This document shows, piece by piece, positions 20,246 to 62,826 of a DNA stretch of 64,000 nt. This stretch comes from a virus, in the IMG/VR virus record IMGVR_UViG_3300049434_000042, positions 2,265-66,264 of that record, one strand, 5' to 3'. Each line of letters begins with the position of its first letter. Positions within the stretch are counted from its first letter, which is position 1. The position numbers and the translations under genes are program-made. The notes under the pieces were generated by a model. It did no database searches and was not told the DNA's origin. It worked only from the letters and a program-made list of their open reading frames with translations.

Positions 20246-20433
20246 TGGTGTGGGTACAGGTCACCAGCGCGCACCGGTGTGAGATCCCGGATGACTGGCG
20301 GGCGATGGGCCCGGGCTCGATCTGGGAGTGCACATCGTGTGACCGGCAGTGGGTTGTCGGCATGAGTGCGTTGCACTTGCGGCCGCCGAAGTTGATCCGG
20401 TGGGTCGGCCGGATCCTCGGCGAGGACATCTAG
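20245..20433 (+). CDS. Small zinc-binding protein
   Basis: HRC.IP..GSIWEC..CDRQW; TGATG overlap. Confidence 0.6.
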   Translation: MVWVQVTSAHRCEIPDDWRAMGPGSIWECTSCDRQWVVGMSALHLRPPKLIRWVGRILGEDI

Positions 20434-21212
20434 GCCGCTTCGACGGCGACGCTGCCGGGGATGCACGCTGCGGGGTCGAACTCGGCGGCGTACCGGCGGA
20501 AGCGGTAGAGCGGGTTTGTTCGCATGCCGTTGAGCAGGTCACGCTCGTGGAATGGTGTGCCGACGAGCATCACGCGCGTGGGTGGCATGAGCAGGGTGCG
20601 GCGTTCGTCCCACCAGCGGGTACGGACTTTGCGGATGGTCCCGGGGTGTGCCATACCGCCGACTGAGCCAAACCACCAACGGTGTGTGCGTTTGCGGCCG
20701 AGCTCTGTCATGCACCCTTCCTCTTCGAGCACGTCGTCTCCGACGATCCGGTCGGGGTGCGCGCCGCGGACTGCCTTACCTGCGCCAGCGACGGTGACTT
20801 TTGACCCGTTCGCGAACTCGATTTCGGTCATGTTGTCGACGAATGCGGTAGCAACCATCCACGGGGCGACGAGCTCCATGGTCGCTTTGATATTCGCGAG
20901 GAGCGCTTTGGCCTGGTCGAGGGTGGCCGAGAAGATGTAGGTCCATAGGCCGGGTGTGTTCAGGGACTCCCAAACGGTGCCGTTGACGGCGATCGTTGCG
21001 GACTTCCCGTGCTCGCGGGGGGCGATGATGCACCCTCGTGACCACGTCATAGCCAGTTCGCACCACTCCCAGTGAAACGGGGCGAGCTCGTAGCCGAGGC
21101 GCCGTTCGGCCCAGACGCCGAGGTGAGCTCGGCAGGCTAACGCTTCCGCTTCGGCCGCGGTGAGGTCCATCAGCGCGGGGTGTAGGCCTCCGCCGTCCGC
21201 GTAGGGCGGCAC
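20430..21212 (-). CDS. terL: Terminase large subunit, ATPase half only
   Basis: Walker A APREHGKS; SATLDQA; IEFANGS; VRGAHPDRIVGDD (Walker B); motif III VGTPFHERDL; stops before the nuclease domain. Confidence 0.88.
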   Translation of the reverse strand: MPPYADGGGLHPALMDLTAAEAEALACRAHLGVWAERRLGYELAPFHWEWCELAMTWSRGCIIAPREHGKSATIAVNGTVWESLNTPGLWTYIFSATLDQAKALLANIKATMELVAPWMVATAFVDNMTEIEFANGSKVTVAGAGKAVRGAHPDRIVGDDVLEEEGCMTELGRKRTHRWWFGSVGGMAHPGTIRKVRTRWWDERRTLLMPPTRVMLVGTPFHERDLLNGMRTNPLYRFRRYAAEFDPAACIPGSVAVEAA

Positions 21213-21215
21213 TGG

Positions 21216-21572
21216 TTACCGCTGCCGTTCGTAGCCGCACGCGCACCGGTCAAACGTCGGGTAGCGGGTTATGAGGTGGGTCGGGTGTAGGCAGGTGCGG
21301 GCGATGATGGTGGCGCCGAGCGCGGGATTGGGTGACTTCCAGCGGCGGGCTTCGGGTGGGTGCCCGTTGGTGCTGGCCAGTTCGCGTCGGGTGAGGCCGA
21401 GCGCGTCGACGAGCTGCGGGAGTGTCAATCCGCTGGTAGATATTACTGCGATTGCCTCACGGAGCCACGCGGAAGGCGACAGTGCGTCGCGTGCGGCCAT
21501 GGCTTCGAGGGTGGTGTGTATCTCGGGTGGTGCCCGAAAGGACAATGGTTTGTGTGTAGCCGCGCCAGACAT
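21216..21572 (-). CDS. RHH-type DNA-binding protein with C-terminal Cys/His motif
   Basis: KPLSFRAP..L.AMAA...SPSAWLREAI; CLHP..CACG. Confidence 0.6.
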   Translation of the reverse strand: MSGAATHKPLSFRAPPEIHTTLEAMAARDALSPSAWLREAIAVISTSGLTLPQLVDALGLTRRELASTNGHPPEARRWKSPNPALGATIIARTCLHPTHLITRYPTFDRCACGYERQR

Positions 21573-21619
21573 AGCGCGGAGACTACCTGCAGTAATACGG
21601 GATTACCTGCAGCTAGCAG

Positions 21620-21847
21620 CTATTCGATGATTCGCAGGGCCCGCGCCTGATTGTGAAGTCGTTGGACGTAGCCCTTCGTGACGAGTTGCGAGATCAGCGC
21701 GGCCGCGGACGAGGTCGAGGAAACACCGGTGAGGCGGGCGAGCTCGCGCACGGTGGGCACCATGTGGACGGTGCGGATGTACTCGCGCAGCGCGTCGAGC
21801 ATTACCTGCTGACGGGGGGTGAGCTTCGGGCGTTCAGCGGTGTTCAC
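21620..21847 (-). CDS. LexA N-terminal DNA-binding domain protein (no peptidase domain)
   Basis: LTPRQ..ML..LREYI....PTVRELA..GVSSTSS..L..KGY..R...ARAL. Confidence 0.85.
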   Translation of the reverse strand: MNTAERPKLTPRQQVMLDALREYIRTVHMVPTVRELARLTGVSSTSSAAALISQLVTKGYVQRLHNQARALRIIE

Positions 21848-22035
21848 TGGGGGGCCTCCTGCTCGACGAGCCCGCACTTCCGAGCGTGGAGCCCGGGGTC
21901 TAGCTGGCCATAGATCTCGGTCCGGGCTGCAGTGTTAGGCGGGTACTGGCAGGGCCCGCAGCAGTGGCTTTGACCGGGCCAGCGCGGTCGCTCGCAGCCG
22001 GGGGTGACACACGGGAGGGCCGTGGAGTCGCTCAC
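21844..22035 (-). CDS. Small Cys-rich protein
   Basis: C.TPGC..HCCGPC..H..C. Confidence 0.5.
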   Translation of the reverse strand: MSDSTALPCVTPGCERPRWPGQSHCCGPCQYPPNTAARTEIYGQLDPGLHARKCGLVEQEAPQ

Positions 22036-22139
22036 ACGTTCGAGACTAACTCACCTACGTGCACTTAGGTACACCAATAGGAGTAGGCCGAGCTCGCCAC
22101 ACGCGACGGTGACCGCGCCGACGAGGAGTAGGTGTGCGG

Positions 22140-22637
22140 TCATTCGGGCTCGGTCCCGGTGCGGGGTAGCGCGCGGTGCAGCCGGAGAGCCATTTCGCGG
22201 ACGGATCCGGGCGCGGTGAAGTCTTCGGGGGGCAGCACTTCGGCCAGCGTGCGGGTAGTGACTTGCTGGTCGGCGCCGGGGGTGTCGAGCTGCAGGATCA
22301 CGGGACGGTCTAGGCCGTTGAGCTGCCGGCGTGAGCGCTCGATCTCGACGAGGACGCGCATAGCGGGGACGTTGCCATGCTCAGCCTCTCGCCAGGCGAT
22401 GCGCCAGACCTCGTCGAGTCGGAGGTTGGACGCTTTGCGCTGTACGGCGATCGCGTCGGGCTCGGGCGCTTTCCCGTAGAACTGCTGGACGAGGCGGTAC
22501 GCGTTGCCGGGGTTGCCGAGGCGCAGTTTGTCGGCGATCTGCCGGTAGGACAGTCCGCGGAGGTGCAGGGCCCCGGCGTCAGCACGGCGTTTATCTGCGC
22601 GCTGGCGCCGGGACTCGGGTCGAGGGGTGTCAGGCAA
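22140..22637 (-). CDS. Putative terminase small subunit (HTH)
   Basis: LRGLSYRQIA..AY; RLD.VW..AW..A..GN..A..IE..R..LNGLD.P pattern of actinophage TerS-like proteins; TTG start inferred. Confidence 0.6.
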   Translation of the reverse strand: MPDTPRPESRRQRADKRRADAGALHLRGLSYRQIADKLRLGNPGNAYRLVQQFYGKAPEPDAIAVQRKASNLRLDEVWRIAWREAEHGNVPAMRVLVEIERSRRQLNGLDRPVILQLDTPGADQQVTTRTLAEVLPPEDFTAPGSVREMALRLHRALPRTGTEPE

Positions 22638-23198
22638 CGGGGTCCTAGACGTCGCCGTAAGAGCCGCGGTAGTGCGCACCGTGGGTTTCGATCGGGAGCT
22701 CGGTGCCATCGGATCCGTCGCCGGCGTAGCTGACAGCGGGAGAAGCCTCGTCGGTGCCGGTGCTGGCCGGTGCGCTGTGAGCACCGGTGTCGGTATCGCT
22801 GCGGGTCGAGGCCTTGCGGCTGTCGTCGCCGGCGTCGTGGTCGGAGGTGCGGCGGGTGGTCCGGGTGTCTGTCATACCGCGGATACTAAGCGTCAGCACC
22901 GGGCCTAACGGTGAGTTGACCACGACGGGCCGGAGTAGGTGCCTACGTCCGGGCTCGTCGGGTGGTGTTGCCTGTACGGCGTGGGTCACGGGGTGACGGT
23001 GTCAGGGTGCTGGCCGGGACTGGTCGCGGGGTGGTCGTCCGGCGTGGGCGGTTCGGCCCAGTGGCGGCCGCGTTTGATCCCGCCGGAGTCCCTCTCGAAA
23101 CACAGTTGATCGTAGATAGGGGTCGGTTGGTCGGGCCCGACAACCACGCGTCGATCCTTTCCAGCGCGGCCGCTAGTCGATCATCCATACCCGGATAA

Positions 23199-23870
23199 CT
23201 AGGCTCGGGGGTGATCCGTCGCGCGTGGCCCCCATTGTGGTTCGTCAGGGGGCGGTAGGCGTCGGCCGGGGGAGTCGGCTAGGACCACGGTCGAGGGGGA
23301 GTGTAGGAGCTCGATCTGCAGGCTCATGGTGCTCTCACCGGTGCCGACGAGGGCCCAGTGCGACGGCTGGTAGGGGATCCGTTCGACGGAGTACGGCAGG
23401 TACAGGGGATGTTTGGGGGTGCCGTTCTGATTGATCCCTACGCATGAGAGCCGGTCGGCGTGGCGGGACTGGCGGATGAGCTCTAACACTCGGGAGGCCC
23501 TGCCGGCGACGAGGTGAGCGGCCGCGTTGCCGTTGCCCCATCCGACGATGATGTCGCCGACGCGTGGGTCGGCCAGCGTGTACCGGATCCACTGGTCGTT
23601 GAGATCACCGATCGCCTCGACGCGAAGCAGGCCCTCGGGTTTGGTGGCGCGGTAGGCAAAGAGGTTGAGCAGGATCACCCCGCCGTATCCCCATTGGTCG
23701 GCCAGCATGCGGCATTTCACGAGGGTGGGATCGTTGATCTTCGCGTCGGCGGTTGAGGGGTTGAGCAGGATCCATACGAGGATCGGCCGGCTGGTATCCC
23801 ATATGCGGGTGAGGGTGTAGCGGTAGAGCGGCCGCGGTTCCTCGTGGGAGAGCTCAGCTTCGGCGATCAC
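23199..23870 (-). CDS. DUF1643 family protein
   Basis: YRYTLTR.W..LNPSTAD..DPT..C..WGYG..NLFAYRAT.P..GWG..PKHPLY. Confidence 0.88.
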   Translation of the reverse strand: MIAEAELSHEEPRPLYRYTLTRIWDTSRPILVWILLNPSTADAKINDPTLVKCRMLADQWGYGGVILLNLFAYRATKPEGLLRVEAIGDLNDQWIRYTLADPRVGDIIVGWGNGNAAAHLVAGRASRVLELIRQSRHADRLSCVGINQNGTPKHPLYLPYSVERIPYQPSHWALVGTGESTMSLQIELLHSPSTVVLADSPGRRLPPPDEPQWGPRATDHPRA

Positions 23871-24196
23871 GGGCCACCTACCGGGATGTAGGGCGAGCAG
23901 GCCTCACAGAGTCGAATGATCGGCCCGCGGGGACCGAGGCGGGCGAGCCACGTCGCGGTGTAAATGACGTGTTCGGGCTCTCCCCCTCGGCTGGTGAGGT
24001 GGTATCCGAGGGGGGTCACGCAGCCGTAGCAGCGGGCCCGGTCGACGGCTCCGATGAGCTCGTCGAGGGCTTCGCCGAAGGGACCGAGGAGACCTTCGTA
24101 GTCGGCGTGGATCCGGTTAGAGTCGATCAGCGGGGGAGTCTCGACGGCCAGATACTCAATCCACAAGATCCGGGGATCGTCAGCGCGGCCGATCAT
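23867..24196 (-). CDS. Hypothetical zinc-binding protein
   Basis: CYGC and CEAC; coupled overlaps. Confidence 0.6.
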   Translation of the reverse strand: MIGRADDPRILWIEYLAVETPPLIDSNRIHADYEGLLGPFGEALDELIGAVDRARCYGCVTPLGYHLTSRGGEPEHVIYTATWLARLGPRGPIIRLCEACSPYIPVGGP

Positions 24197-24387
24197 AGGG
24201 GCACCTTCGAGATCTGCGTGTCGCGGTAGATCGCCATTTGAGCGGTAGCCGCGGCGAAGTGGGCTTGTGAGGCGAGCAGGGCCTCGACGACGGGTGGCCC
24301 GGAGGCGAGCTCGTGAGCGGCCGCGAGGTATTCCTCCCCACGCCGGTAGTGCCCTTGAGCGGATAGGCCGCGGATTCGGTCACTCAT
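24193..24387 (-). CDS. Hypothetical protein
   Basis: ATGA overlaps. Confidence 0.55.
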   Translation of the reverse strand: MSDRIRGLSAQGHYRRGEEYLAAAHELASGPPVVEALLASQAHFAAATAQMAIYRDTQISKVPL

Positions 24388-24929
24388 CGGAGCTCACTGA
24401 TTTGCTTCGCAAGGTACGCGGCGGGGTTGTCAGCGACGGCAGCGAAGTTACGGGTGCCGGCGTCGAGGAGGTAGCCGAGGACGTACGCAGGGTCGCGGTC
24501 GGAGTGCATGGCGATGTAGGAGCCGATGCGGTAACGCAGGGCGCCGTAGGCCTCACTGGTGCGGATCTCGGCTGCGACGTCGGCGTCGAAGAGTCCGCTG
24601 AGTGCGTGCTCGATCTGCTGGTCGAGGTTGCGCGCCGGTCGGGCAGTGTTGACTTTGCCGGCAGTCGTCATGCCGCGGGCTTCGATGACGACGGGATCCG
24701 GCGCCGGTTGGTCGGTGCCGAGCAGCTCTTGCCACGCTTTGCGCTCGGCGGGGATCATGTCGTCTGCCATTCCGGCGGCCGCGAAACCGCGGATCTCGGC
24801 GAGTTTCGCGTGCACGCCGGCGATCTGGACTCTGACGTCGATCGAGAGCTTATCCATGTCGGCGCCGAGGGCGATGCCAGTCAGGATCGCTTCGGCTTGT
24901 GCGAAGTGTTCGGCCGCGTATCTGCTCAC
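24384..24929 (-). CDS. Hypothetical protein
   Basis: GGAGGAG RBS. Confidence 0.65.
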   Translation of the reverse strand: MSRYAAEHFAQAEAILTGIALGADMDKLSIDVRVQIAGVHAKLAEIRGFAAAGMADDMIPAERKAWQELLGTDQPAPDPVVIEARGMTTAGKVNTARPARNLDQQIEHALSGLFDADVAAEIRTSEAYGALRYRIGSYIAMHSDRDPAYVLGYLLDAGTRNFAAVADNPAAYLAKQISELR

Positions 24930-24994
24930 GATGAGACTCCTCCGTGCTTTGGGGCGGGTGACCCGTCGGCCACCTCACCACCAATAGTACAGAG

Positions 24995-25552
24995 TTAGGG
25001 GGTCGCTACACAATACGAGGCGATTTGTGCCAGGGTCCGCTGGTCTCGGTCCGTGGTGGGCAGGGTGATGCGGTACTCGACGAGTACTGCTGCCCACCGT
25101 TGCTCGTACCAGCATCGGGCACCGACGTCGGGGGGGAGGTAGTCGGCGGGCCCGCGTTCGCCCTTCGAGCGGTTCTCGTGGACGGAGGTAAGGACGAGGT
25201 TTGTAGGGTCGTTGGCGAACGATTGGCGCTGTCTAGGTGTCCACTTGTCGGCACCGTGGCGCCACATCCAAGCGCGGGGGACGATCTCGTCGACGTCGAC
25301 GTTCGACCTGCCGTTGACGGTCTGTCCGGTGTAGGGGTCGGTGATGGTGACGTCGAGGACGCGCGGGGGGCACGGTCCGGGCATGGCGAGGAGCTCTTCG
25401 CGGGTGTTGCAGCCGTCGTGGTCCTCATCAGCCCATTTCGCGCCGAACTTATCGCGGGAGTAGCCGCCGTGGTCGACGAGCGGGAGGAAGCCTGCAGCGA
25501 CGGTCAACGCGGCCGCGACGGCGCCGGCGACGATGGTTGCGGGTTTAGTCAT
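24995..25552 (-). CDS. Secreted HNH nuclease-family protein (DUF1524-like); catalytic His apparently replaced
   Basis: Signal peptide; YSR..FG..W.D.D.DGCNTRE.L; DPYTG; VDVDEIVP; FANDP.NL; NRSKG..P. Confidence 0.8.
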   Translation of the reverse strand: MTKPATIVAGAVAAALTVAAGFLPLVDHGGYSRDKFGAKWADEDHDGCNTREELLAMPGPCPPRVLDVTITDPYTGQTVNGRSNVDVDEIVPRAWMWRHGADKWTPRQRQSFANDPTNLVLTSVHENRSKGERGPADYLPPDVGARCWYEQRWAAVLVEYRITLPTTDRDQRTLAQIASYCVATP

Positions 25553-25853
25553 GCTCGCGATGTTCTCGCGGATCTGGCGGGTACTGGTGGTCGACACACA
25601 GCACGGCGACGGCTAGCGCCATCGTTGGGTGATCTGCGCCGAGCGATCCGCCGACGCCGGACAATCTTCGGTGTTCCGCGGCAGTGGCCAGCACCGCGGC
25701 GATGGCGACTCCGAGCGGGCCCGGGAACCGCTGCTCGGCGGCGTGGCTGGCGTCGCGGTAGAGCTGCAGGACGCTAGTGCGGTGGGATATGTGCCTAGTC
25801 GCGTCGTGGGTCAGGCCGAGCAGTCGGGCTAGCGCATCATTCTCGGTGCTCAT
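25545..25853 (-). CDS. Hypothetical protein
   Basis: ATGA overlap. Confidence 0.5.
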   Translation of the reverse strand: MSTENDALARLLGLTHDATRHISHRTSVLQLYRDASHAAEQRFPGPLGVAIAAVLATAAEHRRLSGVGGSLGADHPTMALAVAVLCVDHQYPPDPREHREHD

Positions 25854-25883
25854 GTACGCGGCCGGTACTCGTGGTCGACACAC
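25580..25883. repeat. 19/20-bp direct repeat GGTACT(G/C)GTGGTCGACACAC
   Basis: Copies at 25580-25599 and 25864-25883. Confidence 0.8.
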
Positions 25884-26248
25884 GCTGGCCACCATGCCCG
25901 GCAGTCCGAAGCTGCGCCGGAGCTGACTCGGGGGAATGCGCGGGGTGTGTTTCGTTCGGCAGCCGGCGACTGATAGTGGCATTTCGGGTAGTCGTTGGAG
26001 GTGCCGCGGTTGGTGCTGGTGCGGTGGAAGCGGCAGTTTCCGCAGCGTCGGCCCGGGGAGCTCGGTTCCGGCGCGGCCGCTTCGACGTGCAGGGGGAGGT
26101 AGCGGCCGGCGACGTGCCCGGACAGTGGGTGCACGCCGGAGCGGATCCGGGTGCTTTGCACTTCGGTGAGGCGCCGGCCCGGGGACTGTTTCGCCGGCGG
26201 GGACACCCGGGCCATGCCGAAGAGCGCCGGCTGATCGTCGTTGGCCAT
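25850..26248 (-). CDS. Actinophage hypothetical Cys-rich protein
   Basis: G.HPL..CGNC..YPKC..SD.RAWWPAC. Confidence 0.7.
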   Translation of the reverse strand: MANDDQPALFGMARVSPPAKQSPGRRLTEVQSTRIRSGVHPLSGHVAGRYLPLHVEAAAPEPSSPGRRCGNCRFHRTSTNRGTSNDYPKCHYQSPAAERNTPRAFPRVSSGAASDCRAWWPACVDHEYRPRT

Positions 26249-26251
26249 GGG

Positions 26252-26647
26252 TCAGTCCGGGCTATGCGCGGTGAAGTCGCCGGAGTCGTCGCGGATGGGT
26301 TGGCCACCCATGGCGCAGTAGGCGCGTCGGACGTCGTCGATGGCTACCTCGTTATTGATCGTCCCGTTGGGGTCGTGGCCGATCGCGGCGCGGAAGAGCC
26401 GAACGTCGTACCGGAGGCTCGCGATGGTGTCGGTGTAGCCACGGTCGAGGCCGACGGCTAGCTCGTAGTCGGGGAGCTCGACCTCGACGACGGGCCCGGC
26501 TTCGGCTAGCAGGTTGTCCCATGAGAGGCCACGGCCGCGAATCCACCACCAGCCGTTATCGCGGCTGGCTATCTGGCCTCGACGAGTGAGGACGTGGGCG
26601 ACGTTCGCGATCTCGGGGGTGCCGGCCTTAAATACGCGGGGTCTCAT
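26252..26647 (-). CDS. Hypothetical protein
   Basis: ATGA overlap. Confidence 0.6.
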   Translation of the reverse strand: MRPRVFKAGTPEIANVAHVLTRRGQIASRDNGWWWIRGRGLSWDNLLAEAGPVVEVELPDYELAVGLDRGYTDTIASLRYDVRLFRAAIGHDPNGTINNEVAIDDVRRAYCAMGGQPIRDDSGDFTAHSPD

Positions 26648-27411
26648 GCGCGGACCTGCTCTTCGATTTCGGCTAGTCCGATGAGGGCTGCGTCGAGGCT
26701 TGTGCATTGCGTGGCTGCGCGCCGGCCGAGGTCGACCGGGACGCCGTTGCGGTCTTGTGCGCGGCGGGCGACGGCGTCGAGGGTCTCTTTGATCCCGGGG
26801 ATGATCTCGCGTAGAGCGGTGATGTGGCCGATCGCAATGGTTACGTGGTCGTCGTGGCCGGTGTGGTGGTGACGGTCGGCCCAGGAGTGGCCTCTCGTGC
26901 TGTCTCGGTGCCAGGTGGGCGGCACAGTGGCGTAGGAGACGTGGCCGGGCTCGCGGTCGCAGGTCCAGCCGTAGTCGGTGTGGATTTGCCCGCAGCGGTT
27001 CTCGGTGTCGATGGTCTCGGCTAGGCGGATCGTGGCGTGTAGGGCGCTCGCGCGGACGCGGCCGGCGATGATGTCGGCGGAGGGTGGCTCTTCGCTGACG
27101 GTGCCGAAGCGGTCGGTGATCTCGTCGCTGCTAAGGATGAGGATCCATCGGTCGGAGTATTCCTCGTCGCCGTTCGGGTCGTCGCGTCGGAAGTCGAGCC
27201 CGGATCCGGTGTAAACGGTGTCGACGCCGGCGGGGATCTCTTCGCCGGGGCCCCACGTCCGGGGGTAGATGCCGAGGCCGCGGAGGGCTTGCCGGGCCAT
27301 GGCCTGTAGGGCGTTGCGGCTCTTCCCGTAGGGCATGTCTTGCACTTCGGGGGTGTCGCCCCACGCGGTGACGATCTGGTCGACGAGTTGGTCTTCGGAC
27401 AGTCGGGTCAT
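26644..27411 (-). CDS. Hypothetical protein
   Basis: GGAGG RBS; contains C..C..H..H module. Confidence 0.65.
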   Translation of the reverse strand: MTRLSEDQLVDQIVTAWGDTPEVQDMPYGKSRNALQAMARQALRGLGIYPRTWGPGEEIPAGVDTVYTGSGLDFRRDDPNGDEEYSDRWILILSSDEITDRFGTVSEEPPSADIIAGRVRASALHATIRLAETIDTENRCGQIHTDYGWTCDREPGHVSYATVPPTWHRDSTRGHSWADRHHHTGHDDHVTIAIGHITALREIIPGIKETLDAVARRAQDRNGVPVDLGRRAATQCTSLDAALIGLAEIEEQVRA

Positions 27412-27635
27412 CGGTTACCTCCGGGTGGGTTGATCGCGGTCAGGCAGGACGGGCAGGCGAGGTCGTCGGGTAGGGCTGGTCGGAGCTCCATCAGTGGGAT
27501 GTCGGTGTTTGGGTCGGCGCAGTAGGTCATTGCGGTGGCAGCGAATAGGAGGCGCACGCAGTGGGAGATCACTGGCAGGCCGGCTCGTTTGTCGCACCAC
27601 CAGTGACCCTCGATGGTTGGGTGCACTACTTCCAC
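27408..27635 (-). CDS. Small Cys-rich protein
   Basis: Coupled; CPSC. Confidence 0.5.
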   Translation of the reverse strand: MEVVHPTIEGHWWCDKRAGLPVISHCVRLLFAATAMTYCADPNTDIPLMELRPALPDDLACPSCLTAINPPGGNR

Positions 27636-28006
27636 CTGCCGCGGGTGGCGAAGCGTAGGGCCCGGCGCCACCAGCGGCGGTACGCGCGCCGGCTTCGGCG
27701 GAGGGTGAAGAGCGCGCGGTCGGTGTCGACGAGATCGGGGATCCGTTGGTCTTCGGGGCAGAGCTCCTCCCGCCACGCGCCGAGCAGGGCCCGGAGCACG
27801 TTCTCCTGATCGGCGAAGGCAGCGTCGGTGAGTGTCTTACTGTCGAGGATGGCGGCGAGGGTCTCGCGTTCCGCGTCGGTGATCCTGCCGCCGGCGGCAA
27901 TCACGTTGAGCATGTCGTCGTCGCGCTGTACCGCTGCCAGGTCGGCGACGGTCTCGTCGGTCGGGCGGCCGTAGTGGCTACGGGGGGTGCCGCCGGTGCC
28001 GTTCAC
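27626..28006 (-). CDS. Anti-sigma-D factor RsdA-like N-terminal domain protein
   Basis: DLAAVQRDDDMLNVIAAG...LRALLGAWREEL resembles the RsdA SigD-binding domain; no TM segment. Confidence 0.6.
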   Translation of the reverse strand: MNGTGGTPRSHYGRPTDETVADLAAVQRDDDMLNVIAAGGRITDAERETLAAILDSKTLTDAAFADQENVLRALLGAWREELCPEDQRIPDLVDTDRALFTLRRSRRAYRRWWRRALRFATRGRWK

Positions 28007-28472: not shown

Positions 28473-28475
28473 AGG

Positions 28476-29090: not shown

Positions 29091-29110
29091 TGCGGAGTCC
29101 TTTCCGTTGG

Positions 29111-55155: not shown

Positions 55156-55179
55156 GGGTCACCTCCCGGCGGTTGTTCA

Positions 55180-55228: not shown

Positions 55229-55267
55229 ACGTCCCCCTGTCCACCACGAACGGCGGGACGGTCTTAG

Positions 55268-56353
55268 TTACGCACCTAGCGTGAGCTGGCCCAGTAGGTG
55301 CGCGTTGGGCATGGTCGGGAAGGCGACTGCTACTGCCTTCGACCACTCGCCGGGAGGCTCGTCGGTGCCGTAGGTCGAGGCCCAGATGCCGGAGGCCATT
55401 TGCTGATAGGGGGTGCCGATCAGCGCGCGGGACTCGGCGGTCGGGCCCCAGAGTGTGTTCCCGACTGGCATGCCGGGGAGCAGGACGCCGACGTTCTGTC
55501 GCATGGGCCTGACCTGCGTGACGCTGCCGTCGGCCGCTTCCGCGCCTACGCTGACGTCATAGGTTTGAATCCGGGGCAGGTCATAGCGGTCCATTGTGGC
55601 TTGCACTTCGCCGGGCATCATGGGCCGGTCGGGTGCGGTGGTCTGGTAGGTCCATCCCTTGATCTGGTCGTTGGTGAGCAGGTAGTTCGCGTACTTCCGT
55701 GAGGTCAGCAGGGTTTGCGGCCGCTGCCCGGTCTCGTCTTGGATCTTCTGACAGATCGTCATCAGGTCCGTCAAGGGTGTGGCGTTGGCTACGTCGGACC
55801 ATGCGGGCCCGTAGTCAGCGGCGACCGAGGTGCCGGCGCCGTCGGCTTGCGTGACGAGGTTGATCTGATACTCGTCGTTGAGACCGAAGTCGAAGCGGAT
55901 CTTAATGCCACCCTCGTCGTAGACGACGGCGTCTTCGGAGAGCGCTTGCATGCGGAGCCACTCGACGCGGGCTTGGATCGAGGCGACGAGGTTGGAGATC
56001 CCTCCGAGGACGCCACGCAGCGCGGTCTGCTGGTCGGCGGTGCCGGTGCGGGGGGTGAGAAAGCGGATGATCTCTTTCTCGGAGATTCGCCGCTTCCGCT
56101 TGATCGGGGGGAGCTCACCCATCACGCGCTGACCTTGTGCCTCACGGCCAGCGATGGGGGCTTCGGCGTCCCAGCCGATGACGTGCGCCATTACCGGGAT
56201 GTTCTGTGCCCCGATGATGTACTGATACTCGACGTCGTCGTGTGTTTGGTTGGGCAGCCACGTCGCGCCCTGGTACGCGGGGAGCGGGAGGAGCGCGCGG
56301 ACGTAGGGCAGGAGCAGCGGCGGGGTGAGCTCTTCGAGCTGCCAAATGTTCAC
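55268..56353 (-). CDS. Major capsid protein (lambda E-like family)
   Basis: A....DAEAPI..GELPPIK.K..I.E; R.EW.R.QAL; DFG; WSD...PL.D; G.T.WGPTAE. Confidence 0.92.
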   Translation of the reverse strand: MNIWQLEELTPPLLLPYVRALLPLPAYQGATWLPNQTHDDVEYQYIIGAQNIPVMAHVIGWDAEAPIAGREAQGQRVMGELPPIKRKRRISEKEIIRFLTPRTGTADQQTALRGVLGGISNLVASIQARVEWLRMQALSEDAVVYDEGGIKIRFDFGLNDEYQINLVTQADGAGTSVAADYGPAWSDVANATPLTDLMTICQKIQDETGQRPQTLLTSRKYANYLLTNDQIKGWTYQTTAPDRPMMPGEVQATMDRYDLPRIQTYDVSVGAEAADGSVTQVRPMRQNVGVLLPGMPVGNTLWGPTAESRALIGTPYQQMASGIWASTYGTDEPPGEWSKAVAVAFPTMPNAHLLGQLTLGA

Positions 56354-57087
56354 TGGTAGATCACCCTTCCGCCCATGTCAGCCTTAAACGCCGAGTCAAC
56401 GCCGGCGCAGCGGGCTTCGAGTACCGACCCGTGGATGAGCATGCCGGCGAGGGTGTCGCCCCACTGGACGTCGATGTCACCGGGGAAGAGGTGCCCGGTG
56501 CCGACTTCGCGGCCGTCGGCTGCGCCGGGGTTGGCTCCGCCGGCGGTAGTCGTACCGATGGTGACGTCTGGCGTGGTGCCGCCACCTAGGCCGGTGGCGT
56601 TCTTTGTCATCGCGGCTACGTCGGTGCCGATGTACTGGCCCTTGAAAGTGACGAGCAGCGCGGACCCGGGAAGCGGCCCGCCGGTGACGAGGACATCACC
56701 GGGGTTGATATTGCTGAGGCCTTCGAGGAGGGTCTGCGCCTGCGCTGCAGTGGCATTGAACGGAATAGTTGCGGTTTGACCGGCAAAGGTGAGCGCGAAC
56801 GTTCCCGAGGTCGGCCCGCCGGTAACGGTGACGGACTGCACTTCGTTGGTTTGCGGGAGGTAGGGCCCGTACTTGCCCGAGACGGTGATCTTGCCGATCG
56901 CGGTGCCACCTCGGAGGATCCGCTGCCCCTTCGCGTTGGCGGGCACGGTCGTGTAGTCGATCGTGATACCACCTTGCTTGACCATGTAGTGCTCGGAGGC
57001 GAGCCAGTCGACGGACGGATCGAGGTCCGTGGTGACGGTCCGTAGCCCGGGGGAGTAACCACCCCCAAACTGTGCCGGTGCTGTCAT
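56350..57087 (-). CDS. Head decoration protein with an inserted accessory domain
   Basis: GT.IGKIT.SGKYGPY...DGRE...HG.V; position before the capsid gene. Confidence 0.8.
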   Translation of the reverse strand: MTAPAQFGGGYSPGLRTVTTDLDPSVDWLASEHYMVKQGGITIDYTTVPANAKGQRILRGGTAIGKITVSGKYGPYLPQTNEVQSVTVTGGPTSGTFALTFAGQTATIPFNATAAQAQTLLEGLSNINPGDVLVTGGPLPGSALLVTFKGQYIGTDVAAMTKNATGLGGGTTPDVTIGTTTAGGANPGAADGREVGTGHLFPGDIDVQWGDTLAGMLIHGSVLEARCAGVDSAFKADMGGRVIYQ

Positions 57088-57109
57088 TTCCTGCTCCTAT
57101 TCGTGGCGG

Positions 57110-58039
57110 CTACTTCGCGGCCGGGGCTGTTTCCCATCCGCGCTGTGTGTTCTCTTCCGCTGCCCACGCGCTCATTTGGCCTGCCTTTGCGCGTACTCGG
57201 GTGGCGTCGGTCTGGCTGACCGGCTGGCCTCCGACGGGGATGCCGACCGAGGTGGGTACGAATCCGGCGGGCTGAGCTCCGTCTTCGCGTAGTGCTCCTC
57301 GGCTGCGCAGTGACCGGATCATTTGCTCTTCGTAGGTGCGTCGAAGGGTCGTGATCCGTTGGGCGACCTGCCCTGCTACGTCGCGGCCGGCTTGATCGGG
57401 GGTGAAGCCGCGGGCGAGCATCCCGGGGATCATCGCTGCGGCGAGGTCGGCGGCGACTGCCTGCTCGTCGACGGAGCCGAAGGTGATCTGACCGGCGGTG
57501 TACTCCCGTGCTGCCATCCGGGCCTCTCGGAGGTCACCGTCTGACGGTCCGGTCGGTACTGGCGCCGGCGGAGGGTACTGCTGCGGTTGCTGCTGCGGTT
57601 GCCCTTGCGGTTGCTGGCCGTGGGCCTGCTGGTACTGCGGGTTGCGCATGGCGTTGACCTGCCGGTCGACCGCTGACTGCACTTGCCGGGAGATGAGGTC
57701 TGCGATCGCGTTCGCGTCGAGTCCCTGCGCCGGCGGTTGGCCGGGTTGCCCCTGCTGGCCGTAGATGTACTGGCCGGGTTGCCCTTGCTGGCCGACCTGC
57801 CCTTGCTGCGGCGCGACGTCGAGCAACCCTGACCACGGGTTGACGGACTGCTGCCCGGGTTGGCCGGGTTGTAGTAGTCCACCCTGTATCTGCTGGCCTT
57901 GCTGATCAGCGGGGGCGCCGGGTGCTTGCTGGCCTACTTGCTGCGGTGCGGCCGGTAGTTGGGCCGGTAGTTGCTGCGGTTGGCCTCCGGTGGTGCCCTG
58001 CTGGCCGGTGTTCGTTTGCTGCGAGTTGGGTTGGGTCAT
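57110..58039 (-). CDS. Scaffolding protein, Gln/Gly/Pro-rich
   Basis: Position; low-complexity QQG N-terminus. Confidence 0.65.
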   Translation of the reverse strand: MTQPNSQQTNTGQQGTTGGQPQQLPAQLPAAPQQVGQQAPGAPADQQGQQIQGGLLQPGQPGQQSVNPWSGLLDVAPQQGQVGQQGQPGQYIYGQQGQPGQPPAQGLDANAIADLISRQVQSAVDRQVNAMRNPQYQQAHGQQPQGQPQQQPQQYPPPAPVPTGPSDGDLREARMAAREYTAGQITFGSVDEQAVAADLAAAMIPGMLARGFTPDQAGRDVAGQVAQRITTLRRTYEEQMIRSLRSRGALREDGAQPAGFVPTSVGIPVGGQPVSQTDATRVRAKAGQMSAWAAEENTQRGWETAPAAK

Positions 58040-58375
58040 GTCGCGCCTTCCGTCTGGCGCGCTCTTCGGCTCCGTTTGCCTCTCGTCCGTTCCGCCCGTG
58101 GGCAGGTTGCCCCGTTCGGCCCGGCGACACCCGGCGTTCGCGCGCCTCTCATGGGGGCGGATCATCCGGGGTTCGTGCTGGCGGTGACCATTGCCGGGGT
58201 GATCACGGCGGTTTCGGGTCTTACAGCCGGTGGCGTGGGTGTGTCACTGCCGGGGGTGTCTCGTCGTTGACGGGGCGGAGCGCGCCGGGCCCCGGGTCGG
58301 GGGGTTTGGTCGGGGGCCGGCGCGGCAGGCTCGTCGACGAGGGGGAGGTACCGACGAGCCCGTCTTTGAGCATAG

Positions 58376-58430
58376 ACGGAGGCCCGCGTTTCCTGCCTCC
58401 CCTGACGGGGCAGTTACCCGGGCCTCCCGT
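58376..58430 (-). terminator. Hairpin
   Basis: GGAGGCCCG / CGGGCCTCC inverted repeat after the MuF operon. Confidence 0.45.
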
Positions 58431-58439
58431 GGGCTGATG

Positions 58440-58649
58440 TTAGTGCCGGAGCGCGGATTTGACCCATCCGGCGAGGTCGTCCCAGCCTTCGGCGGCCAGC
58501 ACGAGGGCCCAGACGGTAGCGGTTGTTTCGGCGTCGAGGTCGGTGTTGCGGATGGCGGTTGCCGCTTCGTCGCGGTAGGCGCGCAGCACGTGGTTTGGTG
58601 AGTTATGCACATGATCGTCTCTGATGACGACGAGCGCGCCGGGGTTCAT
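58440..58649 (-). CDS. Hypothetical protein
   Basis: ATGA overlap. Confidence 0.55.
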   Translation of the reverse strand: MNPGALVVIRDDHVHNSPNHVLRAYRDEAATAIRNTDLDAETTATVWALVLAAEGWDDLAGWVKSALRH

Positions 58650-59437
58650 AGGAGCAGTACCACGAGAATGACTCCGAGGGCGACGAGGCGCCAGGAGTGC
58701 CGGCGGTGCAGCAGGATCCGCTGCGTCTGGCGGTCGAGGGTGGTGGCGGGGTGCCCGGCGGGGACCATGAACGCGAAGGGTTGGCCGTGGCGTGCGGCGT
58801 AGGCGGGGTCGAGGGTGGCCAGTAGGTACGTGTCGTCGCTGACGATGTCGCCGATTCGGAGATTCTGGTCGGGGCGGATGGCTCCGAACATGGTCGATTC
58901 GCGGCGGGTGCGGCTGGTGGTGATGGCTTCGTCGAGGTCGGCGACGTGGGCTGCGAGGTCGAGGTCGAGGGTGCCGGTGCGTAGTTGCCGGTCGAGCTCG
59001 ACGGGGTCGTCGAGGTAGCGGTTAAGTGCGTCGAGGTACTTCTGATCGGGTTGGCCGAGGATCGAGTCGAGCTCTTCGCTGTAGTCGCCTCGGGCGACGT
59101 AGCCTCGGCGTTCGTAGGTGGCTTCGTGTGGGCCGGGGATCATTCTCGCGCCGACGCCGGCGGGGCCCTTGCGGCGTTCGGCGAGTGGCCGGCGCATGAT
59201 TTCGAGGTTGGCTTCGTCGCGGTGGCCGGTGAGGAATCCGTCGAGGTAGGGGATGATCACGGACCTGCACCAGCGGTGAAACGGTGGGTGGTCGAAGTCG
59301 CCTACGAGGGTGCGGAACGGGTCGGCCAGTTCGCGGATTTGGCCGGCGCAGTCGAGGCAGATCATGGTTGTGGCGGGGTCGATCTGCGCGAGTAGTTGCT
59401 TCCGCAGCAGGGGGACTCTAGGAGGCCGCGGCGGCAC
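58646..59437 (-). CDS. MuF (SPP1 gp7-like) C-terminal domain fused to a degenerate ADP-ribosyltransferase-like domain
   Basis: D..T..IC....GQ..F..PPFH..CRS; then Y....LR..LD.A..GD...D..Y...VPAG..ILL.R. Confidence 0.7.
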   Translation of the reverse strand: MPPRPPRVPLLRKQLLAQIDPATTMICLDCAGQIRELADPFRTLVGDFDHPPFHRWCRSVIIPYLDGFLTGHRDEANLEIMRRPLAERRKGPAGVGARMIPGPHEATYERRGYVARGDYSEELDSILGQPDQKYLDALNRYLDDPVELDRQLRTGTLDLDLAAHVADLDEAITTSRTRRESTMFGAIRPDQNLRIGDIVSDDTYLLATLDPAYAARHGQPFAFMVPAGHPATTLDRQTQRILLHRRHSWRLVALGVILVVLLL

Positions 59438-60107
59438 GTGACCAACCCTGGTAGCCGGCGAGGAGTAGGCCGTTGACGACGGCGACGGATCCGGCGCGGG
59501 CCTCTTCGACGCAGCGGGAGCGCAGGGCCCAGAGCACTCCGCGGCCGGGTGCGCCGGCGAGTCGGACGGGGTCTTCGGAGCACCAGCGGCGGGCGAGGTC
59601 GGCGGGTGTCTCTTCGGGGTGTACTGCCCAGACGCGGGCTTGCTCGGTCATTCGGCCGGCGGTGATGCCGACCTCGACGGCGATCCGGGCGCAGGCGGTG
59701 GCGTAGTAGCGGGCTTCGAGGTCGGGGGCGATGGTTTCGGCTGCGAGGACGCCGGCGCCGGCGACGGGTATGGCGTGGGGCCCGACGGTCTGCTGACAAG
59801 TGCGGAGCTGCCGGGCGATCACTGGGAGGGTTTCGCCGCGGGTCAAGGCGAGGAGCTGTGAGATCGCGGGCCCGGCGATGGCGAGGATCTGCTCGGGTGT
59901 GGGTAGGAGCTTCGGCACTGCTCGGCGTAGCGCGGTGCGGGTGCTGGCGCCGGCGGCGACGGTGCGTTCGGTGAGGGATACGGCGACGCCTCGGAGCCCA
60001 GATTCGATGACGGCGGCCGCGCGGTGCTCTTCGACGAGCAGGGCATCCATGAGGGCTTTGCTGGCGTCGGCGACGTCGCGGCCGGCGGAGGGTCGGCCGC
60101 CACTCAT
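59418..60107 (-). CDS. Probable N-terminal half of the MuF-like minor head protein
   Basis: Between portal and the MuF core; helical. Confidence 0.55.
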   Translation of the reverse strand: MSGGRPSAGRDVADASKALMDALLVEEHRAAAVIESGLRGVAVSLTERTVAAGASTRTALRRAVPKLLPTPEQILAIAGPAISQLLALTRGETLPVIARQLRTCQQTVGPHAIPVAGAGVLAAETIAPDLEARYYATACARIAVEVGITAGRMTEQARVWAVHPEETPADLARRWCSEDPVRLAGAPGRGVLWALRSRCVEEARAGSVAVVNGLLLAGYQGWSRAAAAS

Positions 60108-61870
60108 CGGGCGGGCCGGAGGTGGGTGGGATTGTTCACGACGCCTCCGACGGTGCCGGGTGGTGTGTTGGTGCCGCCGACGACTCCGGTACCGGGTGAG
60201 GGTGCTCCGCCGAAGCGGCCGCCGTCGATGCCGCCGAATGCTGCCTGCTGCGCTTGCTGGTCACGCTGGCTTTGAGCGTCGATCTCGCCGGTAATCGTGG
60301 TGATCTCGGTGTTGGTGTACCCGCGTAGCCGGAGGGCCTCTTCTCGAGAAATTAGGTTCGCGGTGAAGTCGTCTCGGATTTGTGCGGCGTCGACTACTCC
60401 GCCGGAGCCGGTGCGGATCTCCGCGGAGCGTTGTGGGTAGACCTTGAGTGGGTCGATTTTCAGGGCTTCGACGACGGCGGTCACGCGGTCGAGTTGGTCT
60501 GCGCCGGCTGTCCAGTGGGCTTGACAGTCGAGGACGATGTTGACGAGGGCGAGCCAGTCGCGGACGAGTTGGTTGCGTAGGACGTCGAAGGTCGATTCGG
60601 TGCGGGTGTTGAGAATCTCCAGCGCGTAGCCGGTGACGGCGCCGAGGCCTTGCAGCGTGGACTGGTCGACGCGGGCGAGTCCGAATGTGCCGTAGAGAGC
60701 GTCGAGGAGCACGGTCCGCTGATGTTCGATCAGCGCCGTGTCTGTGGGGAGTACTACGGGGAAGGCTGCGGTGCCTCCGGGGAAAGTGAGCACGTCGGCC
60801 ACGTCTTTGTGAATCTTGCCGTCGGCTTGAGTTTTCATCATGGCTTGATCGCCGACGACGACGAGGGTTGCGTGCGCGTTGTGAGCAGCGGCGAGGAAGC
60901 CGCGCTGCAGCAGGGAGTCGAGGCGGTCAGCCGTTCGCATGGCGCGGGTGCTGACGACGGACTCGCCGCGCTCGACGCGCAGGCCCTTACGGGATCCGCG
61001 TAGCAGTCCCCACGGGACGAAGGGCACGCCGACTGGGATGCGATCGAGGAGGACGTCCTCGTCTTGCCCGGGGCGCTCTTCCCACCACGTCTCGACGCAT
61101 TGCACGGTGACCGGGCCCGTTTCGGGGGTGCCGTCCGGGCCGGGGTACCAGTAGGCCTCGACACGCCATTCGCGGCGGATGGTGACCTGATGAACGTTGC
61201 CGTCGTCACCGGTGCGCCAGTGGGTCTCCCAGAGAGCGACGAACTCGGGGCGGTCGGATCGTTCGCGGGTGAAATCCATGCGGACGGCGTCGCTCGGGTA
61301 GAAGTCGAGCCAGCAGTTGCCGAGGGCGACGTCGAAGCGGACGCGTACGGGGCAGTCCATCGCGAGGAGAGCTTCGCGGGTGACGCGTTCGACTGAGAGC
61401 TCGTCGTCGTCAGCGGTGCCGGAGAGCTCCGGGGATGAGTCGAGGCATCGGTCGATGACGTCTTGCACGGCTTTGTCTTTCGCCTCGACGGCGAAGTCGG
61501 TCACGAGCCGGTGGGTTAGGTAGTCGACGGAGTCTTCGATCTCCGAGGAGTAGGCGTGGAGTCGGAGGTGCTCGGGGAGGCGCCCGGAGACGATGGCCCG
61601 GGCGAGCATCTTCTCGCCGGCGCGAGCTTGCTCGGCGGTGAGGCCGGCTAGGCACGCGGTGTTGTCGGCGTCGAGTTGGGTGCCGCCGTAGTAGGCGCGG
61701 CGGGCGGCGACCTGATCGCGTCGGACGAGCTCGGCTGCCTGCCGGAAGTCGCCTTCGCTGGCGTAGGTGGCCGTGGCGAGTGGTGTGGAGACCCTCATGC
61801 CGATTTGGCCGGGTTCGTTGTATCCGAGGTCAGGGCTGGTCATGCCGTGATATTGCCCTACGGCGGTCAC
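60104..61870 (-). CDS. Portal protein (SPP1 gp6-like)
   Basis: YY.G; VP+; TGYALE; ISREEAL..GY; position after the terminase nuclease gene. Confidence 0.85.
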   Translation of the reverse strand: MTAVGQYHGMTSPDLGYNEPGQIGMRVSTPLATATYASEGDFRQAAELVRRDQVAARRAYYGGTQLDADNTACLAGLTAEQARAGEKMLARAIVSGRLPEHLRLHAYSSEIEDSVDYLTHRLVTDFAVEAKDKAVQDVIDRCLDSSPELSGTADDDELSVERVTREALLAMDCPVRVRFDVALGNCWLDFYPSDAVRMDFTRERSDRPEFVALWETHWRTGDDGNVHQVTIRREWRVEAYWYPGPDGTPETGPVTVQCVETWWEERPGQDEDVLLDRIPVGVPFVPWGLLRGSRKGLRVERGESVVSTRAMRTADRLDSLLQRGFLAAAHNAHATLVVVGDQAMMKTQADGKIHKDVADVLTFPGGTAAFPVVLPTDTALIEHQRTVLLDALYGTFGLARVDQSTLQGLGAVTGYALEILNTRTESTFDVLRNQLVRDWLALVNIVLDCQAHWTAGADQLDRVTAVVEALKIDPLKVYPQRSAEIRTGSGGVVDAAQIRDDFTANLISREEALRLRGYTNTEITTITGEIDAQSQRDQQAQQAAFGGIDGGRFGGAPSPGTGVVGGTNTPPGTVGGVVNNPTHLRPAR

Positions 61871-62826
61871 TGTGTGCGTCCGCTGGTGACTGCGGCGCGG
61901 AACTCGCTCATCCCGCCGGAGGCCATGCGTAGCCCGTACCAGAGGTGCCAGAGCGCCATAACGGTGTCATCGTGTTCGCCGACGCCTTGGAGTTTGCCGT
62001 CGACGTAGCCAAACGCTGCGAGCTCGATCAGCATGTTTTCGATCTCGCCGACTCGGGTGCCGTTGCTGCGGTAGGGGAAAGACCAGCGGCGGGCGGAGAA
62101 GTCGATGAGGAGCGCGGGGACTCCGATGTGTAGTGATTGCTTCTCTTCGCCGGCGCGGTGGCGTAGGACCGGGACGTCGGAGTGTGCCTCGACGGTTTGG
62201 GCCCAGATGACCTGTGCAGCGTCGGCTTCGATGACGACGAAGTCATCATGGAAGAGGGCCCACTGCTGCGCGATGAGCTCGCACTGCTCGGCGAAGGTCT
62301 TGCCCTCCCACCTGTGAATATCGAGGACGCGTTTGCGGCCGGTGTGCAGGTCGAGCTCTCCCGTGATTTTGACGAGGAAGTCACCTCCGACTTTCTCCGA
62401 CCATGCGAGGTCCCAGGCGGAGACGACTATGAGGCGGTGTTCGAGCCCGTTGGGTTTGAGGTAGTGGGGGAGACAGCCGCGGGCCTGGTCGAGCATCGGA
62501 CGCATGAGACGCCGGGGGAAGAGCGACGACTCGTCGGAGCGTGCGCTGGTCAATAATTCACGGTCATAAAGTATCGGGCCGAGCTCTTTGCGCTTCGCGT
62601 TCAGGCACGCGGTGTTCTTTGGGCAGATCTTGCAGGGGAGCTCTCGTTTGATCTCGGGTCGGAGCTCGGGGGGTGCCTCTTCGACTTTGTCGACGCACTC
62701 CTGCAGGGCGATCGCTGGCCAGCGTGACTGCCATAGGGATACGCGGGTGTTGACGTCGACTACGGCTAGTTCGTCGCCCTCTTCGAGTGGGTCTTCGTCG
62801 AGGACGACGGACCGGCCGAGCACCAT
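61867..62826 (-). CDS. terL: Terminase large subunit, nuclease (RNase H-like) half only
   Basis: LW..RW..ELG...Y.RE; AWDLAWS..GDF; VIEA; EHDDTVMALW; no Walker A/B. Confidence 0.88.
   Translation of the reverse strand: MVLGRSVVLDEDPLEEGDELAVVDVNTRVSLWQSRWPAIALQECVDKVEEAPPELRPEIKRELPCKICPKNTACLNAKRKELGPILYDRELLTSARSDESSLFPRRLMRPMLDQARGCLPHYLKPNGLEHRLIVVSAWDLAWSEKVGGDFLVKITGELDLHTGRKRVLDIHRWEGKTFAEQCELIAQQWALFHDDFVVIEADAAQVIWAQTVEAHSDVPVLRHRAGEEKQSLHIGVPALLIDFSARRWSFPYRSNGTRVGEIENMLIELAAFGYVDGKLQGVGEHDDTVMALWHLWYGLRMASGGMSEFRAAVTSGRTQ

Follow-up and report, generated by a model that had tools for sequence, protein, structure and literature searches.

A two-gene large terminase with widely separated ATPase and nuclease halves in a metagenome-assembled virus that carries conjugative-transfer genes

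Background

Single-chain large terminase subunits (TerL), such as T4 gp17, Sf6 gp2 and P74-26/G20c, unite ATPase motifs and a nuclease fold on one polypeptide. The virus record IMGVR_UViG_3300049434_000042 raises the question whether the same motifs and the same fold can be encoded by two genes about 41 kb apart, as a first-pass annotation made from the letters alone had proposed, and what such an arrangement would mean for the enzyme. We addressed it in a stretch of 64,000 nucleotides (bases 2265–66264 of the 66,264-bp record; G+C 66.5%), hereafter the window, whose positions are used below unless contig positions are given. A two-chain enzyme is the best reading of the split genes, as judged from sequence comparison and complex modelling, and the record as a whole is best explained as the genome of a soil-actinomycete siphophage resembling KellEzio. 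The split itself is not new: TerL encoded by two genes is already known and annotated, although it has gone unstudied. It is the distance between the halves that sets this record apart, as the most extreme arrangement among those compared.

Results

Two complementary halves of one terminase

The TerL domains of the record are distributed over two open reading frames (ORFs) with a separate start and stop each, instead of sharing one polypeptide (Table 1). The ATPase half, on the minus strand, has the Walker A, Walker B and motif III sequences that the first-pass annotation had read in it, followed by a stop. It matches phrog_28155 ("terminase large subunit") with E 7.4e-89 over residues 14–257 (profile positions 16–257 of 260); a Pfam scan gave zero matches at E ≤ 1, and a profile search of PDB sequences returned weak matches to P74-26 TerL only (E 0.0034). 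The nuclease half aligns with phrog_31692 (E 5.7e-109, residues 22–316 on positions 28–325 of 328) and with the Pfam family Terminase_6C (PF17289; 22.9 bits, cut-off 22.6), one of the families against which the first-pass annotation had advised aligning both halves. Searching PDB sequences with phmmer yielded no match for the nuclease half, and its predicted fold (mean predicted local distance difference test, pLDDT, 72.7) was placed by Foldseek among TerL nuclease domains, with G20c at the top (5m1p_A, E 2.7e-7, target-normalised template modelling score, TMt, 0.72), followed by T4 gp17, RB49, P22, P74-26 and Sf6 (28 matches with E ≤ 0.001).

Both halves appear to be intact. In homologue alignments of 23 sequences for the ATPase half and 24 for the nuclease half (48–94% identity), K70, D159, D160 and T219 of the former were unchanged throughout (23/23), as were D139, E200, D286 and D287 of the latter (24/24), with D202 retained in at least 90%. 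The ratio of nonsynonymous to synonymous substitution rates (dN/dS) was 0.116 for the nuclease half in comparison with a 95%-identical relative (L104), next to 0.076 for the portal gene and 0.084 for a capsid-like gene, and 0.058 for the ATPase half in comparison with the 75%-identical G001, a pair in which dS is saturated. Purifying selection acts on both halves.

On the full-length TerL profile phrog_38 (760 positions) the two proteins fall one after the other, the ATPase half on 268–470 and the nuclease half on 502–713. Among the 150 representatives listed, 78 match both halves, and all of these are fused TerLs with one half following the other, except for one in which the order is swapped. 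In this 272-aa protein (P0128), the N-terminal part resembles nuclease-half residues 154–271 and the C-terminal part ATPase-half residues 99–260, which is probably an assembly or gene-call artefact. The record holds a single copy of each half: its 977 six-frame ORFs contain one match per half profile (next best E 0.49 and 0.87), and the Pfam families Terminase_6N, TerL_ATPase and Terminase_3 found no further match in it. An intact TerL elsewhere, named in the first-pass annotation as something that would speak against its reading, was thus not encountered in the record, and its description of the genes as complementary, undegraded halves of one TerL is supported by their consecutive positions on phrog_38, the invariant catalytic residues and the low dN/dS.

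The split as a trait of a clade

Only six phage records cover at least 80% of either half, and they belong to four Arthrobacter phages, namely KellEzio and Kitkat (both of cluster AT), BeatusComedenti and DanielleIgnace, in which both halves are homologous to those described here (51–57% identity over at least 87% of each) and match them in length. GenBank annotates their genes as "terminase large subunit, ATPase domain" and "terminase large subunit, nuclease domain". In KellEzio, TerL corresponds to genes 4 and 10, with a RusA-like resolvase (gene 5) and four hypothetical genes between them, and the relevant section of Klyczek 2017 records two TerL-related genes, 4 and 10 (PMC5513430). The record shares with these phages the order ATPase, RusA, nuclease and portal, the unidirectional arrangement of the phage-block genes, and relatedness in the portal, capsid, tail terminator and tape-measure genes. 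Cluster AY Arthrobacter phages likewise have an ATPase ORF and a nuclease ORF, but these are adjacent (genes 2 and 3), and the pertinent lines of a 2026 note describe TerL as lying across two adjacent ORFs in most phages of that cluster (PMC12820723). No functional study of a two-gene TerL was found in open-access text, supplements being outside the search.

The trait extends well beyond the cultured phages. Stand-alone ATPase halves (214–291 aa) and stand-alone nuclease halves (293–346 aa) each form at least 120 clusters, with proteins from Actinomycetospora termitidis and Saccharopolyspora tripterygii genomes among them. ATPase-to-nuclease fusions are absent from the 22 best representatives (E < 1e-30) and first appear at identities of 40% or lower. 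A quick tree was built from 88 rows, leaving out fused proteins above 700 aa, P0128 and any representative that had under 170 aligned residues. In it, 38 stand-alone ATPase halves including the query make up one side of a branch with a Shimodaira–Hasegawa-like approximate likelihood ratio test (SH-aLRT) value of 99, and the split therefore fits a single origin. Conservation of the split in relatives, which the first-pass annotation had suggested checking, is thus borne out.

A survey of 97 fetched loci, with a second KellEzio stretch (L002) set aside, gave the same division. In the split group of 37 loci (ATPase identity 36–75%), both halves were seen in 19, always in the order ATPase to nuclease, 167–9115 bp apart and with an ATPase identity of at least 42%. 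The other 60 loci (26–35% identity) comprise 57 with abutting matches (offsets −134 to 109 bp), which are accordingly fused genes, one split by 1.8 kb, and two that end too early to tell fused from split. A scan of genome contigs gave nothing with a single-protein query and four loci with a profile query. The cargo of the gap varies between relatives and includes an NAD-dependent epimerase (L034) and an ArdC-N protein (L032). The expectation in the first-pass annotation that the halves of a split TerL are usually adjacent or interrupted by an intron or intein does not hold for this clade, where non-adjacent halves are the rule (19 loci; five genes between them in KellEzio). The split is accordingly an inherited trait, annotated before in relatives, and not a peculiarity of this element.

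Two of the surveyed relatives stand out in other respects. An IMG/VR contig of 27,098 bp and only 35% G+C (L031/L117) holds both halves (44–45% identical) 9.1 kb apart, so the split clade is not confined to high-G+C hosts. A 5.2-Mb metagenome-assembled genome of an uncultured bacterium of the Actinomycetota (L006) contains an ATPase half with 51% identity, and the nuclease-half query had no match in it; the ATPase half there could be an orphan, or what is left of a prophage in decay.

A predicted two-chain enzyme

Fused relatives indicate where the chain is broken. They have an ATPase-like stretch (query residues ~41–243) followed within ~15 residues by the equivalent of nuclease-half residues ~71–293, an order that places the break right after the last core strand (FRRYAAEF) and leaves the nuclease chain with the lid-equivalent helices (~71–130) and a clade-specific N-terminal extension of ~70 residues. 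Compared with single-chain TerL, the lid-equivalent part and these ~70 residues with four invariant cysteines are thus found on the nuclease chain. The lid of P74-26 TerL forms a cap over the active site, moves when ATP is hydrolysed, and aids both hydrolysis and ring contacts, according to the parts of the source that deal with it (PMC5389665). The first-pass annotation had correctly seen the acidic nuclease residues and the neighbouring portal gene, but its assignment of the LW..RW motif to the lid did not stand: the motif (residues 31–37) falls in the extension, and the lid-equivalent region is probably residues ~71–130.

The extension is strongly conserved apart from its very beginning. 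L31, W32, R35, W36, C44, C65, C68, C74, R89, E90 and T93 are shared by all 24 nuclease halves, and residues 1 to ~25 are the least conserved part of the protein. The four cysteines C44, C65, C68 and C74 sit in a segment missing from fused TerLs and may form a zinc-binding module.

Modelling of the heterodimer, as the first-pass annotation had advised, gave an interface score (ipSAE) of 0.74, 0.72 and 0.72 in three runs, compared with 0.00 for all three controls; 58 of 80 solved complexes attained the 0.72 mark, as did 2 of 110 mismatched pairs. The runs shared at least 96% of contacts, with a partner pLDDT of at least 77. Modelled contacts involve residues 26, 29–36, 38, 75 and 89–98 of the nuclease chain, and residues 42, 44, 46, 63–68 (Walker A loop), 219–225 and 228 (motif III), 240–247, 255 and 257 of the ATPase chain. 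Modelled alone, the nuclease half has pLDDT below 50 at residues 1–35 and 81–99; docking segments that are invariant and yet modelled with low confidence in isolation are as expected of segments that fold on binding. The two-chain motor suggested by the first-pass annotation is hence the best reading of invariant residues, selection and the predicted complex taken together.

The following mechanism can be proposed. Chain A is the ATPase core, and chain B consists of a predicted docking, lid-like N-terminus followed by the nuclease. The chains would associate non-covalently, with the invariant N-terminal segments of chain B packing on the Walker A/motif III face and on the last strand of chain A. 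The resulting composite ATPase site would be competent for packaging only as a heterodimer, and such heterodimers would assemble on the portal just as a single-chain TerL does. The stretch separating the two genes is the cargo-insertion site of the clade; in this lineage it has probably grown to at least ~24 kb through the RusA cluster and a ~20-kb opposite-strand transfer module.

The chains might instead be joined after translation, each half carrying part of a split intein that ligates them to one TerL. Naturally split inteins are known in phage terminase genes, and intein-sized inserts after Walker A occur in relatives of the ATPase half (for instance P0122, 592 aa). Such trans-splicing is very improbable here: Hint and intein families had no match at E ≤ 1 in either half, there are only ~40 residues after motif III, the candidate nucleophile C249 varies between C, V and L in homologues, and the first ~25 residues of the nuclease half are those with least conservation. 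The inserts deserve mention for their own sake, as four stand-alone ATPase halves, P0122, P0124 (408 aa), P0126 (382 aa) and P0129 (390 aa), match in two stretches with the insert right behind the Walker A region, inside an already split gene.

Distance between the halves and genome topology

One half lies at either end of a 46-kb array of phage genes that all run in one direction. On the linear record they are 41 kb apart and share a strand, at a distance well outside the 167–9115 bp of the 19 loci with both halves. In the related Arthrobacter phages they are 1.8–2.0 kb apart, with five or six small genes between them, compared with 41 kb, or at least ~24 kb the other way, in this record. The record is classed as linear in IMG/VR, is 86% complete (CheckV) and lacks end repeats, so that 41 kb is the distance on a linearised and slightly incomplete record.

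Eleven studies have soil metagenome runs that carry parts of window 14500–24000. Four runs, each from a different study, were compared with window 11000–27000, uncovered parts in two of them (X1 and X10) not being taken as evidence. In run X6, from another study, one Logan contig of 67,050 bp (record 21) covers this range in eight pieces at ~94% identity. In run X2, a 19,637-bp contig (record 17) runs from the transfer block through the hairpin to the RusA cluster, up to window 20087, and a second contig covers 20075–23190. These contigs join the transfer block to the ATPase side independently of IMG/VR, and misassembly, which the first-pass annotation had listed among the things that could undo its reading, is not borne out. 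That an assembler misjoined plasmid-like and phage blocks would be conceivable for a metagenome-assembled contig whose ends have no repeats; with both blocks bridged in two other studies, such a chimera is hardly credible.

Placement arithmetic puts the start of the X6 contig near window 58,186 and lets it reach ~7.05 kb past the left end of the record, which itself holds 5.8 kb beyond window 58,186. The two sequences are thus probably two linearisations of a ~67-kb circle, or of a circularly permuted genome, with ~1 kb missing here. If the genome is circular, the path from the ATPase stop to the nuclease start would measure ~24–25 kb via the transfer block and 41 kb via the phage block. An exact 36-base pattern taken from the record's right end did not retrieve any end-bridging contig in IMG/VR. 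Several relatives are on contigs of 64–69 kb, which together with the joined form in the other study makes ~67 kb look like a stable genome size.

The nearest relative on a long contig, G001 (55,957 bp, 65% complete), is collinear with the minus block from just after the portal gene to the ATPase gene, beyond which it has 7.5 kb of unrelated small genes. A nuclease half was found nowhere in its record. Its lack within 7.5 kb of the ATPase gene means that a wide separation is common to at least two members of this sub-lineage.

Taken together, we consider it likely that the record represents a KellEzio-like genome with a two-chain TerL, in which a cargo site between the two genes has grown to at least ~24 kb.

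The transfer block and the lifestyle of the element

Three genes that the Arthrobacter phages lack set this gap apart, those for a coupling protein, for a MobF relaxase and for a single-stranded DNA-binding protein (SSB); they belong to a block of ~20 kb on the opposite strand. The relaxase is 33–37% identical to MobF relaxases of Streptomyces, Nocardiopsis, Natronoglycomyces and Amycolatopsis plasmids. The coupling protein also matches NF045973 (E 1.6e-7), below the cut-off of this family, and no close relative of it was found in IMG/VR. No VirB4-type family was detected among the plus-block ORFs scanned (11 in Pfam; overlapping sets in PHROGs and NCBIfam). The hairpin in the gap where the blocks converge (Table 1) is likely a bidirectional terminator; directly behind it, at 17881, runs X2 and X6 have a 7-base insertion. 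A 1024-aa ORF of the transfer block (11305–14379, plus strand) has no Pfam or NCBIfam family and no usable atlas match, its only PHROGs match being marginal (phrog_28427, function unknown, E 0.0095).

Like phage-plasmids of the P1, N15 and SSU5 types, the element combines a virion module with plasmid-type genes, and no integrase was found in it; in contrast to those, its plasmid-type genes are transfer genes, and the record yielded neither a ParA (AAA_31) or ParB (ParB_N) family nor any recognised gene for plasmid replication. None of the PLSDB plasmids encodes this nuclease half, and megablast of 20–24 kb pieces against plasmids and phages gave zero matches. The element may represent a soil-actinomycete phage that can be mobilised, or a hybrid between phage and plasmid, and it may live as a plasmid, lytically like its cultured relatives, or with the relaxase-helicase used for replication.

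One way to account for such a gene content is a cointegrate or integrated state, in which a ~46-kb phage has inserted into, or recombined with, a mobilisable plasmid or an integrative and conjugative element at a site between the TerL genes, so that the halves would be a few kb apart in the free phage. Closing the minus block on itself would give the canonical order of TerS-like gene, ATPase half, RusA, small genes, nuclease half and portal, the transfer block is on the opposite strand with a strong hairpin at one boundary, and the relaxase resembles those of actinomycete plasmids. The recombination machinery is another matter: the record showed no match to tyrosine integrase, large serine recombinase or resolvase families, and between the junction zone (contig 19000–23000) and the contig ends no attachment (att)-like direct repeat exceeded a 16-mer, the length expected by chance. 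Moreover, the same joined layout at ~94% identity in the 67-kb contig of another study and the recurrent size of ~67 kb speak for a stable form, and we regard a cointegrate as unlikely.

The distance has also been viewed in regulatory terms, the first-pass annotation having raised a switch between packaging and plasmid life. In such an AND-gate, distance and different operon contexts would let the halves be expressed separately and would license packaging only with both present, switching the element between a virion mode and a plasmid or transfer mode. The positions of the genes would suit it, with the ATPase half closing the long minus-strand array beside the TerS-like gene and the nuclease half heading the structural genes, and the predicted composite ATPase site would tie activity to both chains. 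Several observations nevertheless make an AND-gate unlikely. Split and separation predate the transfer block and are seen in relatives without one, including KellEzio, for which no integrase is annotated; no partition or lysogeny genes were found in the record; promoter and terminator consensus scans around both halves gave nothing above shuffled sequence; and the clade-wide split can be accounted for without it. Similarly unlikely is a combined proposal of a single ~67-kb circular replicon, at once a complete virion-forming phage and a plasmid mobilised by relaxase and coupling protein, in which the ATPase would gain activity only where the core, from the far end of the phage array, meets the lid-nuclease chain from its head, a licence that would keep packaging off during replication or conjugation.

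Gene layout and neighbouring genes

A gene call based on G+C at third codon positions resolved two blocks, one on the plus strand (contig 301–20083) and one on the minus strand (contig 66121 to 20178). The plus block contains the SSB, the TraG/VirD4-like coupling protein, the 1452-aa TrwC/AAA_30 relaxase and several ORFs without a family. Read in its own direction, the minus block starts with three small genes and the nuclease half. The portal gene and those for head, tail and tape measure come next, along with tail fibres and a GH25 lysin. Then follow DnaB, a DnaC/IstB-like loader, ERF, a PD-(D/E)XK nuclease, an HNH endonuclease, DUF1643, a TerS-like helix-turn-helix (HTH) protein, three small genes of DNA-binding type and the ATPase half. 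Past the latter are two small plus-strand ORFs and then the RusA cluster.

The HTH gene upstream of the ATPase half is where the first-pass annotation had placed a small terminase subunit (TerS), and its synteny with the ATPase half is repeated in G001/L020 and L030. Its identity as TerS is tentative: the protein matches phrog_645 (E 1.3e-17), a family labelled "Rnase E", and HTH_23 (E 0.028), while a "Terminase small subunit family" cluster came up as an atlas lead (score 0.96). The ribbon-helix-helix-like gene between them ends 3 bases upstream of the ATPase half, and homologues hold the same place in L003, L005 and L020; its product may act together with the ATPase half or regulate it, or may itself be the true small terminase. 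A 102-aa ORF that lies two genes upstream of the nuclease half (63114–63422, minus strand) resembles a MerR/excisionase-type HTH protein by eye and has a counterpart in the same position in L105 (50% identity). Apart from this homologue, tblastx of the 2.4 kb upstream of the L105 nuclease half against the record and the G001 tail gave compositional noise.

Table 1 Positions of the TerL genes, their motifs and other features (window positions unless stated otherwise)
Feature	Position	Strand	Remarks
TerL ATPase half, 260 aa	20430–21212	−	RecA/Rossmann core; ends ~40 aa past motif III
ATPase-half Walker A, APREHGKS	21000–21023	−	
ATPase-half Walker B and catalytic Glu, RIVGDDVLEE	20721–20750	−	
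ATPase-half motif III, VGTPFH	20547–20564	−	
TerL nuclease half, 319 aa	61867–62826	−	N-terminal docking/lid-like region predicted (~26–130), then RNase-H-like nuclease
Nuclease-half catalytic residues	D139, 62410–62412; E200/D202, in 62215–62241; D286/D287, in 61957–61980	−	Conserved acidic residues
Conserved N-terminal segment of nuclease half	62548–62736	−	Predicted contact surface for ATPase chain
Motifs of this segment	LWQSRWP, 62716–62736; C44/C65/C68/C74 cluster, 62605–62697; YDRELLT, 62548–62568	−	
Portal protein gene	60104–61870	−	phrog_33334, E 4.2e-100; start overlaps nuclease-half stop by 4 bases
TerS-like HTH protein	22140–22784 (likely internal start near 22637)	−	Upstream of ATPase half
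Ribbon-helix-helix-like protein, 118 aa	21216–21572	−	phrog_7325, CopG-like, E 7e-4
RusA-family resolvase	18161–18817	−	PF05866, E 4.4e-8; downstream of ATPase half, same strand
HNH-type endonuclease	24995–25597	−	PF07510, E 5e-9; PF13395, E 4e-4; ~2 kb upstream of TerS-like gene
Type IV coupling protein (TraG/VirD4-like)	135–2255	+	PF12696, E 9.6e-16; PF02534, E 4.8e-12
MobF-type relaxase-helicase (TrwC + AAA_30), 1452 aa	3080–7438	+	PF08751, E 2.5e-45; PF13604, E 9.5e-51
Coupling protein, relaxase-helicase and SSB	window 135–7438 and contig 1688–2167 (L100)	+	Transfer genes beside full virion module
Perfect hairpin, 18-bp stem	17829–17880		Inverted 16-mers; gap where plus and minus blocks converge

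Discussion

Several points weigh against the reading of the record as a KellEzio-like genome with a two-chain TerL and an enlarged cargo site. The dS saturation mentioned above affects the ATPase-half comparison, and the score of the modelled complex, for which our own alignments were used as input, may reflect memory of single-chain TerL structures in the model and as such shows likeness to them. The quick tree is without bootstrap, and seven short stand-alone rows, which may be fragments, land among the fused proteins. As to topology, the record is not closed. The conjugation arm that the first-pass annotation had placed between the halves on a circular map is found there the short way round, with one junction bridged by independent contigs; the other, where the transfer block's left end would meet the sequence upstream of the nuclease half, is one that we infer, and the figure of ~24 kb was calculated from a single contig, using its length and placement.

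A more radical objection would be that one or both halves are decayed relics and that a normal TerL is encoded in the unsequenced remainder, for which the CheckV completeness of 86% leaves some room. This is highly implausible in view of purifying selection on both halves, catalytic residues that are all intact and a two-gene form that is found clade-wide, including the complete genome of the isolate KellEzio, in which no third TerL gene is annotated; the missing piece is, by the arithmetic above, probably only ~1 kb.

Conclusions

Current understanding of TerL is not overturned by this locus, as the split had already been annotated in GenBank. With its natural break just behind the ATPase core and a lid-like part on the nuclease chain, such a TerL is a ready-made system for studying the packaging motor and could reveal how the motor is driven by lid movement and by communication between domains. 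Since the clade includes culturable Arthrobacter phages, the idea of a two-chain enzyme is directly testable. The gap between the two genes can hold at least 20 kb of foreign DNA with both halves kept, and a phage of this clade has gained a relaxase and a coupling protein in an uncommon pairing of virion and conjugative-transfer genes.

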